Source: a virus
Taxonomy: Duplodnaviria; Heunggongvirae; Uroviricota; Caudoviricetes
IMG/VR virus record: IMGVR_UViG_2563366806_000008
Location: 1-34,125 of that record
DNA: 34,125 bases
Direction: 5' to 3' (one strand)
This document shows, piece after piece, positions 1,447 through 34,125 of this stretch; positions within the stretch are counted from its first letter, which is position 1, and the number at the start of each line of letters is the position of its first letter. The position numbers were made by a program, and so were the translations under genes. The notes below the pieces were generated by a model. The model had not been told where the DNA came from. It was given only the letters and a program-made list of their open reading frames with translations, and did not search any database.

Positions 1447-1533
1447 GCTGAAAAACATAACCCATAAAATGCTAGCTGTACCAGGAACCACCTCCTTAGC
1501 CTGTGTAATCTCCCTTACACGGGCTTATTTTTT
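1447..1533 (+). ncRNA. cyaR: CyaR (RyeE) Hfq-binding small RNA, about 87 nt, ending in an intrinsic terminator
   Basis: Sequence gctgaaaaacataacccataaaatgctagctgtaccaggaaccacctccttagcctgtgtaatctcccttacacgggcttatttttt matches my recollection of E. coli CyaR; stem cctgtgtaa/ttacacggg followed by T-run. Confidence 0.8.
1507..1533. repeat. Prophage attachment core, left copy (ogr-proximal junction): aatctcccttacacgggcttatttttt
   Basis: Exact 27-bp direct repeat of 33612-33638; coincides with the last 27 nt of cyaR; phage genes start immediately to the right. Confidence 0.8.
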
Positions 1534-1597
1534 ACGTACAACAAATTGAAATAAAAGGATTTATTTCTGGTTAAGTCCACACATTGACCACATCGAC

Positions 1598-1635: not shown

Positions 1636-1854
1636 TTACATCCACATAATTTGCTGCCCTGACGGCAACGGGTGCGGCCTCACGGCGTGGACTTCTCCCG
1701 GCTTCACGATGTATCTCTGTACCGACTCATAAGTGATGAACGTGGCGCTGCAATTCACGTTCTGGCACTGGTGATAACGCTCTTTTGTCGTGTCAGTGAT
1801 ATAGCGACTTGTACGCGCATGTGCGGCATGCTGGCATAAAGGACAATGAAACAT
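1636..1854 (-). CDS. ogr: Ogr, zinc-finger late-gene transcription activator (72 aa)
   Basis: Trimmed to internal Met giving MFHCPLCQHAAHARTSRYITDTTKERYHQCQNVNCSATF... with C-x2-C ... C-x4-C zinc finger; 72 aa as in P2 Ogr; the longer ORF (to 1917) is probably an artefact. Confidence 0.8.
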   Translation of the reverse strand: MFHCPLCQHAAHARTSRYITDTTKERYHQCQNVNCSATFITYESVQRYIVKPGEVHAVRPHPLPSGQQIMWM

Positions 1855-8238: not shown

Positions 8239-8332
8239 CCGTTTAACTCCGTGGTTAATGGGTGCAACTATTTTCTGTTGGGCAGTGCATAAGACGCTAT
8301 TTGACCTGACTGGTCAGTGGATGAAACAACAG

Positions 8333-8524: not shown

Positions 8525-9751
8525 TCAACCTTTCAATGCTTCAATCGTATTATTAAGTCGACGCAACAGGTCGTCGTACGTCAATATGTCTATCATGTTG
8601 GCGTACTTACGTTTGATTATCTCAAAATCAAGCAACTGACCGTCGGTCATGTTACCGTTCGCTATCTGATCGCGTCCGACAATGATGATGGCTTTTGGGT
8701 TAGATATACGAATACACATTCCCGCTGGCAGAGAATTCTTGTAGGCATTCGTAAGCTCTTTTTCACCCTTAACACCCCATTTAGATAAATGAAAAATATA
8801 CTTTTCAGCCTGCATAATACCGCCGCTAAGTTCTGATGTAGGAATATAGTTATCGCGATAGGGCGTCTTGCGAAGGATCTTATCATCAAACGGCTTTTTG
8901 ACTTCGATGATATCAAGGTTGCCGTTTGCATCCACCAGTGCAATGTCTATAAACCGATTTGTTTTAGCCGAAGGATTAGAGTAATAGTCGAAAATTTTAA
9001 CCTTCTCGAGGACCTTGATATATTTTGGAAAAAGTAATGTGATGAAGGGTATCATCAGGCTCTGCCAGTCATCTTCAGACAAGTTAGTTTTGTTATTCAA
9101 CGCATCCTGGATAATGTCTCTTATGAGTGTATATTTCTCAATTTCGAGCTTATTTAAAACTTCTAAATCCAGTTTGTCGGTTTTTCTGATCACTGTTTTT
9201 CTGTTTAGGTAATGTTCATACCGTTCGCGAGCATCTTTCATACCATCAAGATAACCTGCGAGAATAGCGTGAACCCTTGCATTAGCATAGCGATCCAGTT
9301 CCCCTGTGTTGGGGAATTTACTTTGCAACTCCTGGAATACGCTTTTTGGTATAGCTTCCGGCTTATCTCCTCCGATGATGATGGGATTAGTGTGATCGAG
9401 TAGTTTTGAAAGCCGACCAAAAATGGAGACGTTGCGTTCTGACGCAAATACTTTCCTTTCAAGCTTGATGGACTTATGTATAAGGACATCTCGATTAATG
9501 CTTAGAATCCGTCCCGGAACTGTTATGTATTCATTATTAAGCGTGCCAAAATTAAAGGAATATTCGTAATCATTAAAATCCTGAACGGTTGACGGTGGGT
9601 TTCTCAAGTCCTGGAGTTGAAAGTTAAAAATTCGTGAAATGCATACTGTTTGAAATTTATTTAAACTCTCCCAAACCCAAATTATTTGTTCTCCGCTGTC
9701 ACCGTCGTAAGTCATAACAACGTCATTTGATACAAAGCTGAACTGTAACAT
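8525..9751 (-). CDS. Cargo protein (408 aa): N-terminal domain of unknown function plus C-terminal PD-(D/E)xK / RecB-like nuclease domain; candidate anti-phage effector, possibly Shedu (DUF4263)-like
   Basis: AT-rich ORF in the G/FI slot with good RBS (agagga) before ATG at 9751; motifs FIDIALVD (D269/D274), IIEVKK (E283-x-K285) and QAEKY (Q314-xxx-Y318) match nuclease motifs I, II, III. Confidence 0.6.
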   Translation of the reverse strand: MLQFSFVSNDVVMTYDGDSGEQIIWVWESLNKFQTVCISRIFNFQLQDLRNPPSTVQDFNDYEYSFNFGTLNNEYITVPGRILSINRDVLIHKSIKLERKVFASERNVSIFGRLSKLLDHTNPIIIGGDKPEAIPKSVFQELQSKFPNTGELDRYANARVHAILAGYLDGMKDARERYEHYLNRKTVIRKTDKLDLEVLNKLEIEKYTLIRDIIQDALNNKTNLSEDDWQSLMIPFITLLFPKYIKVLEKVKIFDYYSNPSAKTNRFIDIALVDANGNLDIIEVKKPFDDKILRKTPYRDNYIPTSELSGGIMQAEKYIFHLSKWGVKGEKELTNAYKNSLPAGMCIRISNPKAIIIVGRDQIANGNMTDGQLLDFEIIKRKYANMIDILTYDDLLRRLNNTIEALKG

Positions 9752-10041: not shown

Positions 10042-10569
10042 TTATTGCGGTATTTCCGGCCATTCAGGATTTGCAGGATCCACACGGCTGACCAGAACGC
10101 TGTAGCGTTCCCATGACTCCAGTCGTGCGCGCTCCTCATCCGTCGCCATATTCAGCCTGACGGTGCGTTCCAGCGGCTGGATAACGCTTTCCGCTTCGGA
10201 AAGTAACGCGGCCTTTTGTGATTCGGCCTGTTGTTGCTGTTCGTCTGCCGTATAAATCCGCTTAATCACGGCACCATCCTTAAACATCCATTTACCTGAG
10301 TCATCAGCACGTCGGTTGGCGGTAATATCAGGAACCTCGACAACGCTAAAACCTTCAGGGTTAAGCGTTGAAGCATCTCTGGTGATGCCGACAATTATAT
10401 TATTCTCGTCGTAAACAATCTTTATCGTGTCCTCCTGAAAATTACTTACTTCCTCATACCAGTTTTTTCCCTCTTCGGACCATAACCAGATAACATCAAA
10501 ATTTTTTGTCAGTTGATATTGGGCAACAGTTTTTGGATTACCCGCAATAATATTTTTTAAATGCTGCAT
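10042..10569 (-). CDS. G: Tail fibre assembly chaperone G (175 aa)
   Basis: Immediately downstream of H; 175 aa as in P2 gpG. Confidence 0.8.
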
Positions 10570-10572
10570 AAA

Positions 10573-12501
10573 TTACACCTGTGCGACGTTATACCATGTT
10601 CCATTGATGTATTTTTGTATTGGTCTGAATACTGCGGGGTCATCACCATCGACTTCACCGACAATACCAAGCCCGGTAATTACGTGCCCTGCTTTCTCAT
10701 ACATCACACCTTTTTGCATAGTCTGAACAACACGTGTGCCCAGGCGAATATCTCGTACATAGCGAGAATCCGATTCATCTTTGGTATATGCACCAACATC
10801 TCCCGCAGAGGGTTTGCGGGTTGTGGTGTAAAACTCTGACCAGTCAGCCTCAAATCCATAACCATCACGCGCTGAACGATAATAAATACCGCCGTTCTTA
10901 TAATTCACACGGAACTGTACGGCAGGGCAACTCCCCTCGCTCATATTGAAATGGAGGATTAATGTCGATGCGCCACCAATATTTGCTTGATAGACCCCGC
11001 TATTCCAGTTCCAGCCAACAGCTTTATCATTTCCGACAGTGCTTCCTGTTTTCCCTAAAGCAAATGCAGGCTGCTGGTTTTTCGTGTTGTAGTCTCGTCG
11101 CCAGCCAGGAGCATAAGCATCACCATGATTAATATAAGTGAATTGAGCGTTAGTGGTGCCGCCTCCGGTGGAAGTGCTTGGTGTTGTTACACGGATGGTC
11201 ATGGCACCTTTATTACCCATAACCTCAATAACGCAACCTGCAAGATGAATAGTTCCACAGCCAGTATCGGTAATAATTTTATTATTGCCGTATGACCATG
11301 AACATTTGCACATCCAGTACGGATGATTAAATGCACCACGGGAATCCAGCCATTCAATAAACTGAGCGGTTGTCCAGTTTCCGGCTTCAGTGCTCAAAGC
11401 GCCGCTATAAGCACGACAGGCACCGATATTTTTCGTGAAGGTATCCTTTCCCGGAATATCCGCACCGTTCTGATCTTTCTGAAGACGTTTTTCAGCATTG
11501 TCATAGGCAGACTTCACTGCTTTTGGTGTTGCGGCCAGCGTTTCAGAATCACTGTTGGTGGCGCTACTGAGCTGGACAAGGCCTTTTCGCGCCGTGGTGG
11601 CATCCTGCGCAGTGTATTTCCCGTTAGCAAGGTCATACGCTGTCTTAACCGCCTTTGGCGTTGCTGCAAGCGTTTCAGAATCGCTGTTGGTGGCGCTACT
11701 GAGCTGGACAAGACCTTTTCGCGCTGTGGTGGCGTCCTGTGCAGTGTATTTCCCGTTAGCAAGGTCATATGCTGCCTTTACCGCTTTTGGTGTTGCGGCG
11801 AGCGTTTCAGACGTGCTGTTGGTGGCGCTACTGAGCTGGACAAGGCCTTTTCGCGCTGTGGTGGCATCCTGCGCAGTGTATTTCCCGTTAGCAAGATCAT
11901 ACGCGGCCTTTACCGCTTTCGGCGTTGCGGCCAGTGTTTCAGACGTGCTGTTGATCGCACTGCTTAACTGAGTAAAACCTTTTGCGGTCAGCGAGGCGTC
12001 CGGGTGACGTCGTGACTGTTCATGCTCTGCAATTTTGTCATCAACGTAATCCTGCGTCGCCATCACCGTTGTGGTGTCAATGGTCAGCGCCACTGAGGCC
12101 ACACTGCTGACGATGATGACCATGCGACAGGTCTGCGAACGCCCTGAGCCTTCGGCAAGAGCTGGCTTATAACTTTCGGCCATGTTCGCCACGGCAATTA
12201 ATGTTCCCGCATCATCGTACAGGCCAAGCTCACGCATCCAGAAACCGCCCACCTCCGGCGGAATAACCAGCTCTGCGATAATATAATTACTGTTTCGTTT
12301 GTCCTGGCTGATTTTGTTCAGCGCATGTCGCCAGACTTCATGGATAAGCCCGGTCTGTCCGGCATCCGGGACAGGCAATTTACCACCGCCATCCCCGACG
12401 GCCATCGTGGTAATGTTGACCTTCCGCCCTCCAGGCGCGGTTGCCGCTGCCAGCTTTGCTGCACCGGCAGTGGTGATAACGGTTCTGAATTTTGTGCTCA
12501 T
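10573..12501 (-). CDS. H: Tail fibre protein H (642 aa)
   Basis: N-terminus MSTKFRTVITTAGAAKLAAA... typical of P2-type fibres; internal SETLAATPKAVK fibre repeats; variable C-terminal part. Confidence 0.85.
   Translation of the reverse strand: MSTKFRTVITTAGAAKLAAATAPGGRKVNITTMAVGDGGGKLPVPDAGQTGLIHEVWRHALNKISQDKRNSNYIIAELVIPPEVGGFWMRELGLYDDAGTLIAVANMAESYKPALAEGSGRSQTCRMVIIVSSVASVALTIDTTTVMATQDYVDDKIAEHEQSRRHPDASLTAKGFTQLSSAINSTSETLAATPKAVKAAYDLANGKYTAQDATTARKGLVQLSSATNSTSETLAATPKAVKAAYDLANGKYTAQDATTARKGLVQLSSATNSDSETLAATPKAVKTAYDLANGKYTAQDATTARKGLVQLSSATNSDSETLAATPKAVKSAYDNAEKRLQKDQNGADIPGKDTFTKNIGACRAYSGALSTEAGNWTTAQFIEWLDSRGAFNHPYWMCKCSWSYGNNKIITDTGCGTIHLAGCVIEVMGNKGAMTIRVTTPSTSTGGGTTNAQFTYINHGDAYAPGWRRDYNTKNQQPAFALGKTGSTVGNDKAVGWNWNSGVYQANIGGASTLILHFNMSEGSCPAVQFRVNYKNGGIYYRSARDGYGFEADWSEFYTTTRKPSAGDVGAYTKDESDSRYVRDIRLGTRVVQTMQKGVMYEKAGHVITGLGIVGEVDGDDPAVFRPIQKYINGTWYNVAQV
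11497..11982 (-). repeat. In-frame tandem repeats within H: about 3.7 copies of a 132-bp (44-aa) unit KGLVQLSSATNS(T/D)SETLAATPKAVKAAYDLANGKYTAQDATTAR
   Basis: Read directly from the H translation (residues about 174-335) and the near-identical DNA units starting near 11521, 11653, 11785, 11917. Confidence 0.8.
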
Positions 12502-13947: not shown

Positions 13948-14295
13948 TCAACTCACAGGGATGGTTAACGAAAGTGGCTGGCCGGTATCGTTGTGCTGGC
14001 CGGTTAACGTGACCGTCATTCGCCCGTCAAAGCTGCGCGCCGTGGTGACGGATGACAGGGTGACGCGGGGTTCCCATTTCAGCACCGCCATGTAACAGGC
14101 GACCTTAATCTGCAACTCAAGCGCCGGGGTCTGCGGCTGGTCAATCATTGATGCCAGCAACGAGCCGTAATCACGACGCATCACCCGTGAGCCGACCGGT
14201 GTACGCAGGATATCGCCGATACTCTGGCTGATATGCTCAAGGTCAGTGACAGTCAGGCCATCACTGCGATTCATTCCGAGATAACGCGCTGTCAT
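13948..14295 (-). CDS. W: Baseplate wedge protein W (115 aa)
   Basis: Synteny V-W-J; 115 aa as in P2. Confidence 0.8.
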   Translation of the reverse strand: MTARYLGMNRSDGLTVTDLEHISQSIGDILRTPVGSRVMRRDYGSLLASMIDQPQTPALELQIKVACYMAVLKWEPRVTLSSVTTARSFDGRMTVTLTGQHNDTGQPLSLTIPVS

Positions 14296-14927
14296 AAAGG
14301 ACTCCCGGTTGTGCCGCCGCTGTCGCCGGGGTGTTTATGGGTATGCAGTACCTTACCGTTTGATGAGAGTTCACCGCCGGTATGTTCAATGTTGCCGCGC
14401 ATCGTCCCGCCCTTCTGCACTTCCAGCGTGCCGGTAATCAGCCTGTTGGTGCAGACCACCTCCGGTGTGTCCAGGGTGACGCGGGTTGATGCTTTCACCA
14501 TGACCACCGGCACCGTGGCAGTAACAGAATCAGAGGCCGTCACGCTGGCCGTTTTAATTCCGCTTACCGTAAGTGCACTGGTTTCGGGTTCATATTCAAT
14601 CACCGCCCCGTCAGGGAAACGGATATGCAGGGCATCCGCCGACGCAGACGGCGCGGGGTTATCGCCGGAATAAATCCCCGGCAGAACGAACGCCGTGTCG
14701 AGTTCACCGCCCACGGCCAGAATCAGCACCTGTTCCCCCACGGAAGGTGCCCACCATGTGCGCGAACGCCCGGCGCGATGGGTCAGCCACTGAAGCCAGT
14801 CGGTGCACATGCCGCCGGTCTGCACACGGCAGCGACCGGCGTTAAGGTCGGTTTCGACGACAATGCCGGTGCGTATCATGTTGCGCAGTGCGCGCGCGAG
14901 TTCCTGAATATTTGATAATGTGCTCAT
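14292..14927 (-). CDS. V: Baseplate spike/hub protein V (211 aa)
   Basis: Trimmed to Met giving MSTLSNIQELARALRNMIRTG...; 211 aa as in P2 gpV; the longer ORF (to 14996) would run into the divergent promoter region. Confidence 0.8.
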   Translation of the reverse strand: MSTLSNIQELARALRNMIRTGIVVETDLNAGRCRVQTGGMCTDWLQWLTHRAGRSRTWWAPSVGEQVLILAVGGELDTAFVLPGIYSGDNPAPSASADALHIRFPDGAVIEYEPETSALTVSGIKTASVTASDSVTATVPVVMVKASTRVTLDTPEVVCTNRLITGTLEVQKGGTMRGNIEHTGGELSSNGKVLHTHKHPGDSGGTTGSPL

Positions 14928-14973
14928 ACGGCAATAATGAGAGATATATACTCGATAAACCATTACAACCCGT

Positions 14974-14991
14974 TGTATCATTTTTGGCACA
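14974..14991. promoter_or_regulatory. Perfect TGT-N12-ACA dyad (Ogr-type late promoter box) upstream of V
   Basis: tgtatcatttttggcaca; palindromic dyad centred about 55 bp upstream of the V ATG; P2 late promoters carry this dyad near -55. Confidence 0.35.
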
Positions 14992-15010
14992 ATCAAGAAG
15001 GAACTGAAGT

Positions 15011-15754
15011 ATGGATAAATATCAAATCTGGGAAAATCAAAAAGACACCATCGCCCACCAAGAGTATTTAAAAATCTCCGACACCAATTTACTTGGACAT
15101 ATGCATATTGCCAATTACGAAGTTGTCCAACATGAATTAAGCAAATTCAACTCCCCTGACATTGTTTCCCGTCATTCATTTAACAGAGACAAATTTAAAA
15201 AAGAACATTTAAACATATCAAGACACCTTTTCAATTATATATCTTCAGCATTATCATTTAGAGATTCAACGCGCAACCTACTTAAAACAAAAGCATTAAA
15301 TATTGCCGACATTAAAATCAAATCAGAGGCATTCATCAATCATGAATTCCGAAATAATCCAGTAATAAAATTAATGGAGGATTTAAGAAACATCCTGACG
15401 CATCAAAACATGATCGCCCCATCAATATCATCATTCATGCACCTCCAAAGAAATATAAACATGCACGGCTTTTCATTTAAGATTGAAAGAATCTTAAACA
15501 ATGACAGAACCACCAAACAAACAAAAGAATATTTAATCTCACTAAAGCAAAAAAACTTATTCATTTTACCGATAATAGAAGAATACCAATACACGACTCT
15601 TAAGTATCAACACTGGCTTTTAGCAAGTATCTACACTGTTCATCAAGATACTTACCAAGAATACTGGAATGCGAGAAAAAACATCATGAACGAATGGGGA
15701 GGAGACACTCAGCTAATACCTAAAGAGAGTGAGCTCACTTATTTAACCAGATAA
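15011..15754 (+). CDS. Cargo ORF of unknown function (247 aa), opposite strand to the late operons; candidate accessory/defence gene
   Basis: Strongly AT-rich ORF with RBS aagaagga before the ATG; Asn/Lys/Ile-rich; occupies the S/V junction (P2 orf30 position) on the opposite strand; contains R126-x4-H131 (RNILTH). Confidence 0.6.
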   Translation: MDKYQIWENQKDTIAHQEYLKISDTNLLGHMHIANYEVVQHELSKFNSPDIVSRHSFNRDKFKKEHLNISRHLFNYISSALSFRDSTRNLLKTKALNIADIKIKSEAFINHEFRNNPVIKLMEDLRNILTHQNMIAPSISSFMHLQRNINMHGFSFKIERILNNDRTTKQTKEYLISLKQKNLFILPIIEEYQYTTLKYQHWLLASIYTVHQDTYQEYWNARKNIMNEWGGDTQLIPKESELTYLTR

Positions 15755-15775: not shown

Positions 15776-15808
15776 GGAAAAAACTGGCCGCGACATTTTA
15801 TCGCGGCC
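15776..15808 (-). terminator. Intrinsic terminator of the head/lysis late transcript (after S); the same hairpin may also end the plus-strand cargo ORF
   Basis: Stem ggccgcg (15786-15792) / cgcggcc (15802-15808); on the minus strand followed by agttttttcc. Confidence 0.55.
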
Positions 15809-15958: not shown

Positions 15959-16411
15959 CTAACGATCGAGGTGAGCCAGGATAATCTCTTCAATCATCTG
16001 CACATCCTTACCGGTAAAGCCGAGCAAAGGACGCGCCGGATAATCAATTTTCTTACCGTCTTTCCGGGTTTCTTCCGACAGACCAAACTGATGCACGCTG
16101 GCGATTTTCGGTGACTTCCCGCCGTAAAATTCCATTGATGCCTGTTCCGGGCTGGCGCGGATATGCAAAAAACGACTGGTGATAAGTTTCGCAAACATTT
16201 TTCGCTTAACGCGACCGGTCTTTTTTCTGGCGCTCTGCTGCTGGCGTGGCGCGTAGGGTGTGCCGTCCGGGGCTTTCTGTGCCATCACCCGACGCTGCTG
16301 ACTCTGCCGCAGACGTTTCGCCAGTTCGGCACTCAGTCGCCGACGCCCTGACGGTGACAGCGATTCAATAAGTCCGGCCAGCCGGTCTTCAAAACGCTTA
16401 AACTCATTCAT
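15959..16411 (-). CDS. S: Tail completion protein S (150 aa)
   Basis: Synteny R-S; 150 aa as in P2. Confidence 0.8.
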   Translation of the reverse strand: MNEFKRFEDRLAGLIESLSPSGRRRLSAELAKRLRQSQQRRVMAQKAPDGTPYAPRQQQSARKKTGRVKRKMFAKLITSRFLHIRASPEQASMEFYGGKSPKIASVHQFGLSEETRKDGKKIDYPARPLLGFTGKDVQMIEEIILAHLDR

Positions 16412-22159: not shown

Positions 22160-22332
22160 TGTCAGGAGTCCTGAATAGTGATTAGAGGAGTCACATGTCG
22201 GCATCAGTTTCCCGACGATGCGCATCCTCCGCCATCAGTCCCGGATGGCTTATCACTGACACAACAGCACCTTAGCGAATCGCGGGGCGCGACTCAGTAG
22301 CCTTGCCGTGTATTCATCACGGCGAGGTATTC

Positions 22333-25542: not shown

Positions 25543-26472
25543 TCAAACCAGGCTTTTGCCTTGCTTCATTTTTTTAGATGAGTCTAAAAATTTGAAATTA
25601 TCATTAGATGAAAATATTCTTTCTGCGGTATGCCGAATGACTGAAGTATTGAAGACCGCAGCCTGCTCCTCATTACAACTGAATACACCCTCATGACCAT
25701 CAAACTCGCCCGCCAAAAGAAGGTTTTTTGATACTGGGAACAAAACTAAAGTGTCTTTTACACCAAACCCGGGGGAATAAGGGCCTCGTGCTAATTCAGG
25801 ATTAGTCCACATTAAGCAAACTGGGTTATCTGAAGTTATAAATGACCCTTGCCCATCAGATATGGTCATAAGTGACCAGTTGCGTTGATGCAACAACTTG
25901 GTGATAACAGGTACACATTTCATTTCCATATCTATCATGAACTCTCTGATTACATTGATTTCGAAATTATCCCCATCCACAAAATTTTTAATTTTTTCGT
26001 AAGCGAGATCATATGGCAAAGACTCACCCATTTCTTTCTCATAAGCTAATTTGCAATCGTCCCAACGCTCAGCCGAACTAACTGAGGATTTCATGATAAA
26101 CTTTGCTATTTGTTTCAATGGAGATGATAAATGTTCTCGCTGAGCAGGCGTACGTATTGCCAATAAGGAAATAAACTCCAGAATAACATCTTTGGTTTCG
26201 CCTGAAAACTCGCCCCCCTCCTCAAGTTTTCTTAAATGAGTAGCGACACTGCCTTCAAACTCTGCAAGAGAACTCTCGAGATAGTTTGGGTCAACTCCAT
26301 CCAATTCTAATCGGTTGAAATCTCTAACCCCCCCGACATTGCGAGTATTACTCTCAAAGGTTTTGCGCTCCTTTAAATCTATTACAGTTAATTTTGATTT
26401 TTTCCCCCCATTACTTGTAAACCCTTTCAAATAACATTGGGATAAAAAATGATGATGCCTTGCAACACTCAT
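25543..26472 (-). CDS. DUF4238-type cargo protein (309 aa from Met at 26472); candidate single-gene anti-phage protein
   Basis: AT-rich ORF in the tin/old slot; N-terminal HHFLSQCYLKGF resembles the DUF4238 signature (HH-x-x-P/S-Q-x-YL-x-x-F); RBS ggag before ATG at 26472; ORF extends upstream to 26514. Confidence 0.65.
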   Translation of the reverse strand: MSVARHHHFLSQCYLKGFTSNGGKKSKLTVIDLKERKTFESNTRNVGGVRDFNRLELDGVDPNYLESSLAEFEGSVATHLRKLEEGGEFSGETKDVILEFISLLAIRTPAQREHLSSPLKQIAKFIMKSSVSSAERWDDCKLAYEKEMGESLPYDLAYEKIKNFVDGDNFEINVIREFMIDMEMKCVPVITKLLHQRNWSLMTISDGQGSFITSDNPVCLMWTNPELARGPYSPGFGVKDTLVLFPVSKNLLLAGEFDGHEGVFSCNEEQAAVFNTSVIRHTAERIFSSNDNFKFLDSSKKMKQGKSLV

Positions 26473-26575
26473 ACTCAGCTCCGTTATGGCTATAATCGCA
26501 TAAATAATAAGCACTTATATTGCAATCATCTAGTTAAATACACAATATTTATGACTCCGAAATTTCATTAAATCA

Positions 26576-33542: not shown

Positions 33543-33611
33543 CGTTTAAGGGCTTTCAGTGGTCATTTATGCCGCTCAAACCCGCATTGTACCGTTGAAA
33601 GCCCCTACTGA

Positions 33612-33638
33612 TGACACCCTAAATCTCCCTTACACGGG
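33612..33638. repeat. Prophage attachment core, right copy (int-proximal junction)
   Basis: Exact 27-bp copy of 1507-1533; here followed by one extra T and the inverted repeat gggcttat / ataagccc. Confidence 0.8.
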
Positions 33639-33807
33639 CTTATTTTTTTATGCATAAGCCCTATCTCTGGTAACCGTCTTCCATTGACCACATCGATAGA
33701 ATCCTCCTTCATAGCACGATGCCTTTCACTTATCGGCATCGTGCTCCCACAGGTTCCGGCTACGCACAGCCAGAACGCGCATATTTGACGCTTACCAAAA
33801 AATATTC

Positions 33808-34125
33808 TCACTCTCCACATTTGAATGTCAGACGAGCGACACCATGTAATCCTACACCTTCTGTCTTCAGCTCAACTATTTGCATTTTTTTGCCCTGAGT
33901 AACACAGAAATGAGTTGCATCATTTTTTACTATATTTTCTGCACCAGATATTCTACCCCTGGCTAAAGAAGCTTCGGCTTCGGTGTAGTATTGGTTATCG
34001 AGTTTACGCTGAATATTACTTTTATATGCAAGACCAAATTTACCGATACTTGTCTCATCATTATGCACAGCACAACCAGACATAATAAAAATACTAATTA
34101 ATGATATAGCAGCTATCTTTTTCAT
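33808..34125 (-). CDS. yegR: Small lipoprotein (105 aa), probably host gene yegR
   Basis: MKKIAAISLISIFIMSGC: signal peptide plus lipobox; position just outside the prophage as for yegR next to the K-12 ogrK/yegZ remnant; identity from memory only. Confidence 0.5.
   Translation of the reverse strand: MKKIAAISLISIFIMSGCAVHNDETSIGKFGLAYKSNIQRKLDNQYYTEAEASLARGRISGAENIVKNDATHFCVTQGKKMQIVELKTEGVGLHGVARLTFKCGE

Follow-up and report, generated by a model that had tools for sequence, protein, structure and literature searches.

The perfect dyad TGT-N12-ACA at positions 14974..14991 is most probably (at a rough probability of 0.85) the activator box of the late promoter PV in a P2-like prophage of E. 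coli, which has four such promoters and was analysed here within a single stretch of 34,125 bp, referred to as the window throughout. The initial annotation had taken the dyad for a late-promoter box of the Ogr type, and this reading is upheld by the position of the dyad with respect to gene V, its rank in a weight-matrix scan, its conservation in relatives and the presence of an Ogr protein identical to that of phage P2. During lytic growth the zinc-finger protein Ogr (gene at 1639..1854) would bind the box at 14974..14991 and would recruit RNA polymerase to a weak core promoter, which would have a -10 element CATTAT (14939..14934) and no -35 element. Transcription would then start at the A of the V start codon (14927) or no more than one base away, and the resulting V-W-J-I-H-G message would be leaderless and translated without a Shine-Dalgarno sequence. 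That Ogr binds the box, that it contacts the alpha subunit of RNA polymerase and where exactly transcription starts are inferred from homology to the P2 annotation. The mechanism of Ogr, including its contact with the alpha subunit, is described in the P2/P4 literature. An Ogr box at about -55 combined with a leaderless V message is already known for P2, and the present finding adds little to the biology of P2 itself. The box is located in the variable slot for orf30 cargo genes, and each cassette in this slot has its own version of it at the same distance from V.

The prophage and its late genes

The window contains a complete P2-like (Peduovirus) prophage of E. coli, bounded by an attR core at about 1508..1534 and an attL core at about 33624..33650. 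The 27-bp P2 att core AAAAAATAAGCCCGTGTAAGGGAGATT is present at both prophage ends, and a host gene encoding a U32 peptidase adjoins the prophage. The late genes are located on the minus strand. Gene V (14292..14927, minus strand), which encodes the baseplate spike (211 aa, Pfam Phage_base_V and Phage_spike), is the first gene of the V late operon; it is followed by gene W (13948..14295, minus strand), and V-W-J-I-H-G constitute the late morphogenetic operon downstream of the PV box. Gene S is located at 15959..16411 on the minus strand. It is followed at 15786..15808 (minus strand) by a hairpin and a T-run, the terminator of the O operon, for which P2 has an annotated terminator at the equivalent place; this hairpin terminator insulates V from read-through.

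The late-gene activator gene ogr (1639..1854, minus strand; Pfam Ogr_Delta) encodes a protein that is identical to P2 Ogr at 72/72 residues (100%). A second copy of ogr beyond attL (33605..33820) was considered and rejected, as this region has no similarity to ogr. The host flank at 33660..33700, just outside attL, contains ATCGATGTGGTCAATGG, which resembles GTCGATGTGGTCAATGTG of P2, i.e. the sequence that follows the ogr terminator and adjoins attP. An earlier P2-like insertion may have left the ATCGATGTGGTCAATGG sequence behind; none of the ORFs beyond this sequence is ogr-like or D-like.

Megablast comparison with P2 and its relatives gave 97-98% DNA identity that ends at window position 14914, and upstream of this position, which corresponds to about codon 5 of V, no DNA identity to P2-like phages was found. 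Because the identity to P2 stops within the first V codons, the V promoter region and the adjacent cargo ORF together constitute one non-P2 cassette.

Position of the dyad and occurrence of the bare motif

The gap between the ATG of V and the ATG of the divergent cargo ORF spans 83 bp (14928..15010) and contains the dyad, which reads TGTATCATTTTTGGCACA at 14974..14991 and is a perfect match to TGT-N12-ACA, as the initial annotation had reported. Its centre, at 14982.5, was said to lie about 55 bp from the V ATG; the measured distance to the A of this codon (14927) is 55.5 bp. TGT-N12-ACA is the consensus quoted for the late promoters PP, PO, PV and PF (PMC3931495). In the P2 record (AF063097) the activator binding site of PV is annotated at 10239..10266 and the V-operon transcription start at 10308, on the first base of the V coding sequence, so that the centre of the site is 55.5 bp upstream of the start; according to the same record, PO and PP share one site located 55-56 bp from each start, and the PF site lies at ~57-59 bp.

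The window and P2 are alike in that the box is located upstream of V with a distance of 55.5 bp between box centre and ATG, that V lacks a Shine-Dalgarno sequence and that Ogr is identical. In both, moreover, a divergent, AT-rich and non-essential ORF has its Shine-Dalgarno sequence abutting the box, and the O-operon terminator is located beyond the cargo gene. They differ in that the P2 box is imperfect (TGT-N12-CAA in the window frame) whereas the window box is perfect, in that the window box is 1 bp closer to the ATG, and in that the window has the better -10 sequence (CATTAT vs CAATCT in P2). Furthermore, DNA homology is no longer detectable beyond about codon 5 of V in the upstream direction, and the cargo protein is unrelated to P2 Orf30, a relationship that was rejected on the basis of a BLASTP E value of 0.74.

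The bare motif TGT-N12-ACA is not enriched in the window, which has three perfect copies vs 8.95 +/- 2.6 expected, and 168 copies with at most one mismatch vs 147.5 +/- 10 expected. The under-representation of the bare motif counts against the dyad being the PV box. One of the two other perfect copies (1502..1519) straddles the attR core/junction and the other (12356..12373) lies within gene H; both are accidents that are irrelevant to the late promoters. A perfect dyad would fall on the expected place, give or take 1 bp, with a chance of about 8e-4 (8.95 x 3 / 34125). What exceeds chance is the position of the dyad together with its extended sequence, and not the motif alone. 

The PO/PP and PF boxes

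A weight matrix of 24 columns was derived from eight other boxes, namely those of P2 PO/PP, PF and PV and those of five non-homologous PV variants from IMG/VR. When both strands of the window were scanned with this matrix, the four highest-ranking sites were, in this order, the PO/PP box (22243..22266), the PV dyad in the plus orientation (17.3 bits), the PF box (8308..8331, 15.9 bits) and the PV dyad in the minus orientation (10.0 bits); the PF box of the window was absent from the training set. A score of at least 17.3 bits anywhere in the window was obtained in 17 of 500 shuffles.

The activator box common to PO and PP, which reads TGTGTCAGTGATAAGCCA on the minus strand (22246..22263), has one mismatch (CCA for ACA) and is identical to the P2 box. 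Its centre, at 22254.5, is 55.5 bp away from the positions that correspond by homology to the PO and PP starts annotated in P2. The PF activator box, TGTTTCATCCACTGACCA (8311..8328, minus strand), also has one mismatch, again CCA for ACA, and is ~56.5 bp away from where the transcription start of P2 PF maps by homology. The scan of the window that the initial annotation had proposed has recovered the sister boxes PO/PP and PF in the one-mismatch form TGT-N12-CCA, and a complete set of late-promoter boxes is now supplied for this prophage, in which the PV box is the sole perfect one. The earlier description of the dyad as the only perfect late-promoter box is correct among promoter positions, but not for the window as a whole with its two further perfect copies.

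Conservation of the box in relatives

Gene V was found to be 95-99% identical to that of the window in 78 P2-like IMG/VR contigs, and these contigs fall into seven mutually unrelated types of V-upstream sequence. V starts with ATG in 7/7 types, and TTGT is likewise present in 7/7, its TGT being at position -65 relative to the ATG, or at -64 in the type to which the window belongs. Two Eganvirus phages have kept TTGTGTGA at the same distance from V. In the differently organised phage SEN5 (Senquatrovirus), a box at -65 upstream of V was not found. Because non-homologous cassettes each carry a box at the same place, the placement of the box is attributable to selection and not to descent.

The 83-bp gap was aligned for only five variants from three clades, whose cargo proteins are 51-76% identical. 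Overall, 42/83 positions are invariant; TTGTGC is invariant at 6/6 and ATGATAC at 7/7 positions, and CAT(T/C)AT at -12..-7 is invariant at 5/6. Conservation is lacking in the spacer, in the 6 bp directly before the ATG and in the sequence TATATAT at -23..-17. In more distant relatives the right half of the box is ACT and not ACA, an observation that counts against the dyad being the PV box; since these relatives have an ACT right half, a perfect dyad is not required. The extended pattern TTGTGCN5ATGATACNACG gave 65 matches in genome contigs, all of them in unrelated taxa and attributable to chance, and in IMG/VR it retrieved only two E. coli alleles that were already known, which added no depth to the footprint.

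Non-homologous boxes at a fixed distance from V amount to a natural experiment on the bases that Ogr needs. From the comparison of cassettes, one side would have to provide TTGT and about four further bases, and the other side a loose xCA.

Each of the cargo cassettes in the slot between S and V (IMG/VR L003-L082, 130 bp upstream of V) has an Ogr box of its own that is not homologous to the others. A recombination junction is located between the box and the -10 region in L008, L013 and L078, and inside the first V codons in the window type. The commonest V-upstream type (52/78 loci, without cargo) has a hairpin between the box and the -10 region.

Expression signals of the cargo gene

The cargo ORF (15011..15754, plus strand; 247 aa) is AT-rich, with a GC content of ~0.32, is assigned to phrog_12680 and occupies the orf30 slot between S and V. 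P2-like phages are known to have three variable regions, one of which is the orf30 slot (PMC3091744); the slot is also documented in PMC6823313, and orf30 is not mentioned in a study of variable-region hotspots (PMC9122126). The cargo gene looks like a gene expressed in the lysogen rather than a late gene. Its Shine-Dalgarno sequence, AAGGA (14997..15001, plus strand), belongs to a purine-rich tract that is conserved in relatives, and only 5 bp separate it from the end of the box at 14991. Because of this short distance, a cargo promoter, if it is present in the gap, must overlap either the box or the PV core.

A single dyad between divergent genes is also found at P2 PO/PP, where the box works in either orientation, and at the window dyad the better extended half-site, TTGTATCA, faces the cargo gene. 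Unlike at PO/PP, however, a cargo start located 55.5 bp beyond the box would fall inside the ORF, at about 15038, and the cargo gene has a Shine-Dalgarno sequence. Activation of the cargo gene by the box in the manner of PO/PP was rejected, as the implied start lies 27 nt within the ORF.

A consensus scan detected a candidate sigma-70 promoter for the cargo gene, TCGATA-N18-TATCAT (14952..14981, plus strand; 9/12 matches), whose -10 hexamer (14976..14981) lies within the Ogr box. If this promoter were constitutive, Ogr bound to the box could at the same time occlude its -10, so that the site would have a dual use; we consider this rather unlikely. It would account for the conserved block 14947..14960 (11/14 invariant), which contains the candidate -35, is without an equivalent at P2 PF or P2 PV and has no other explanation. 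The 5-bp distance between box and Shine-Dalgarno sequence, which forces any cargo promoter in the gap to overlap, argues in the same direction. So do the layout of P2 orf30, which is alike in having its Shine-Dalgarno sequence AAGGAG abutting the box, and the independent detection of the same sigma-70-like site, in the same position, in L088, a distant relative whose cargo protein is 51% identical; the candidate -35 and -10 hexamers are both conserved in relatives. Against it, matches of 9/12 occur at chance frequency in DNA this rich in AT (5 seen vs 4.2 expected), and an Ogr half-site fully accounts for the invariant ATGATAC, TTGTATCAT being identical to the half-site of the L078 box. In addition, promoter prediction gave nothing comparable in the P2 gap, and the cargo promoter could instead be located inside V.

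Occlusion of this kind would shut off the cargo gene in the late lytic phase and, conversely, RNA polymerase at the cargo promoter could dampen PV. The suggestion of the initial annotation that Ogr and cargo expression might interfere with each other is, as far as the geometry of the gap goes, a reasonable and plausible one. A more elaborate scheme, in which the Ogr box doubles as an operator, appears improbable: a sigma-70 promoter would express the cargo gene, possibly a gene for a HEPN-like RNase or defence function, from the third variable slot in the lysogen, and Ogr would then turn leaderless V on and the cargo gene off. Such a switch-off would protect the late development of the phage itself, and cargo cassettes would travel with their own unit of box plus promoter.

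Several carriers of the cargo gene are damaged. The cargo ATG is changed to AGG in L074 (IMGVR_UViG_3300045988_104087), the cargo gene is split into two ORFs in L086 (NZ_CP025849), and it is shortened to 197 aa in L087 (NZ_CP104595). In L084 (NZ_CP025856) V has an internal stop and carries a pseudogene annotation.

The start of the V message

The inferred transcription start of PV is the A (14927) of the V start codon ATG (14925..14927, minus strand), in line with the P2 annotation and the lack of a Shine-Dalgarno sequence. No Shine-Dalgarno sequence was found in the 20 nt that precede the V ATG (atatctctcattattgccgt) or before V in any of the seven upstream types, in agreement with what the initial annotation had noticed for V. 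Such sequences are present elsewhere, i.e. GGAG for FI, GAGG for P and AAGGA for the cargo gene. The putative -10 of PV, CATTAT at -12..-7 (14934..14939, minus strand), is invariant at 5/6 positions in the five variants (CATTAT/CATCAT), and its flanks vary. The spacing between TGT and this hexamer is 52 bp, the same as to CAATCT in P2 and to CATCCT in common type A. A -35 was not found for PV, the sequence TGGTTT at -35..-30 matching at 2/6 positions; its absence is expected because the promoter is activator-dependent. The -10 of P2 at its annotated start is poor (CAATCT), which counts against a leaderless PV message.

Christie and Calendar reportedly described a leaderless P2 gene in 1985, and Julien and Calendar are said to have reported in 1995 a footprint at -55 of P2 late promoters and a role for the alpha subunit of RNA polymerase. 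P2 is listed among the few leaderless genes of E. coli elements by Shell et al. 2015 (PMC4633059), who cite Christie & Calendar 1985. Together with the start annotated in AF063097, this suggests that the V mRNA, which had been described as nearly leaderless, is most likely fully so. As in the well-known leaderless mRNAs from mobile elements of E. coli (lambda cI from PRM, Tn1721 tetR and P2 V), there is an ATG without a Shine-Dalgarno sequence and transcription would start on the A; unlike those, the leaderless message of the window would head a six-gene structural operon.

Alternatively, transcription from PV could start ~10 nt upstream of the ATG, using TATATAT (14950..14944, -23..-17) as -10, which would give a very short leader lacking a Shine-Dalgarno sequence and place the box at about -45. 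This seems highly improbable, even though TATATAT is a far better -10 than CATTAT and is found at nearly the same place in the window and in P2 despite unrelated surroundings. In relatives of the cargo family it is not conserved (CATATGT, CATGCTT; 3/7 invariant), unlike CAT(T/C)AT, and it is absent from the commonest V-upstream type. Moreover, the P2 record sets the start on the ATG, and with its box at -45 PV would depart from the 55-57 bp spacing seen at PO, PP and PF. The TATATAT sequence at about -24..-17 before V occupies 14944..14950 in the window and 2654..2660 in L001 (P2), with unrelated flanks; its common occurrence may be a coincidence in AT-rich DNA.

That the dyad is a chance palindrome in acquired AT-rich DNA, V owing its expression to a different promoter or to O-operon read-through, is barely credible: about nine copies are expected per window and the two other perfect ones are clearly non-functional, but the position matches that of P2 exactly, the dyad has a top matrix rank in the window, both half-sites are conserved, TTGT recurs at -64/-65 in seven unrelated contexts, and the terminator at 15786..15808 together with the opposing cargo gene blocks read-through.

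The cargo protein family and the variable slots

The cargo protein belongs to phrog_12680, a family annotated as of unknown function, and gave no match in Pfam, PADLOC or NCBIfam, nor in a sequence-profile search of the PDB. Homologues with 51-59% identity are encoded in the same slot of other P2-like prophages, divergently from V and with a gap of 84 bp. A profile search of 1.84 billion representatives yielded 337 relatives (~340 uncharacterised protein clusters), most of which are ~240 aa long; some are ~550-720 aa long and have the cargo domain at their N-terminus. A tblastn search with the cargo protein against 50,697 phage records gave no match. A 741-bp ORF has been reported for phage R18C (PMC6823313); given the lack of a tblastn match, the cargo gene cannot be equated with it.

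Residues N35, N75, R126 and H131 are invariant and N127 is nearly invariant in 50 homologues, and the motif L-R-N-x3-H, which includes R126 and H131, conforms to the HEPN motif Rx4-6H. Motifs of the Rx4H type mark HEPN RNases. An AlphaFold model based on the 50-sequence alignment is mostly helical, with a pLDDT of 95.2 and a pTM of 0.90; AF2 gave a pLDDT of 57 with six sequences and of 95 with 50. A Foldseek search of this model against the PDB gave no significant neighbour. That the cargo protein is HEPN-like is a lead and not a result. The family has a confidently predicted fold and an invariant R-N-x3-H, and the expression signals of its member in the window necessarily overlap PV.

Like the variable regions of other P2-like phages (the TO region with old/tin, Z/fun and orf30), the window has its cargo gene in the orf30 slot, and the other two slots carry Shedu SduA and DUF4238-Pers. 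The Z/fun slot between G and FI (8525..9751, minus strand) encodes a 408-aa Shedu SduA protein (PADLOC PDLC04067, E = 1e-219), and the old/tin slot next to Q (25543..26514, minus strand) encodes a 323-aa protein assigned to PADLOC DUF4238-Pers (E = 2e-219). Known or candidate defence genes are accordingly present in two of the three variable slots of the prophage.
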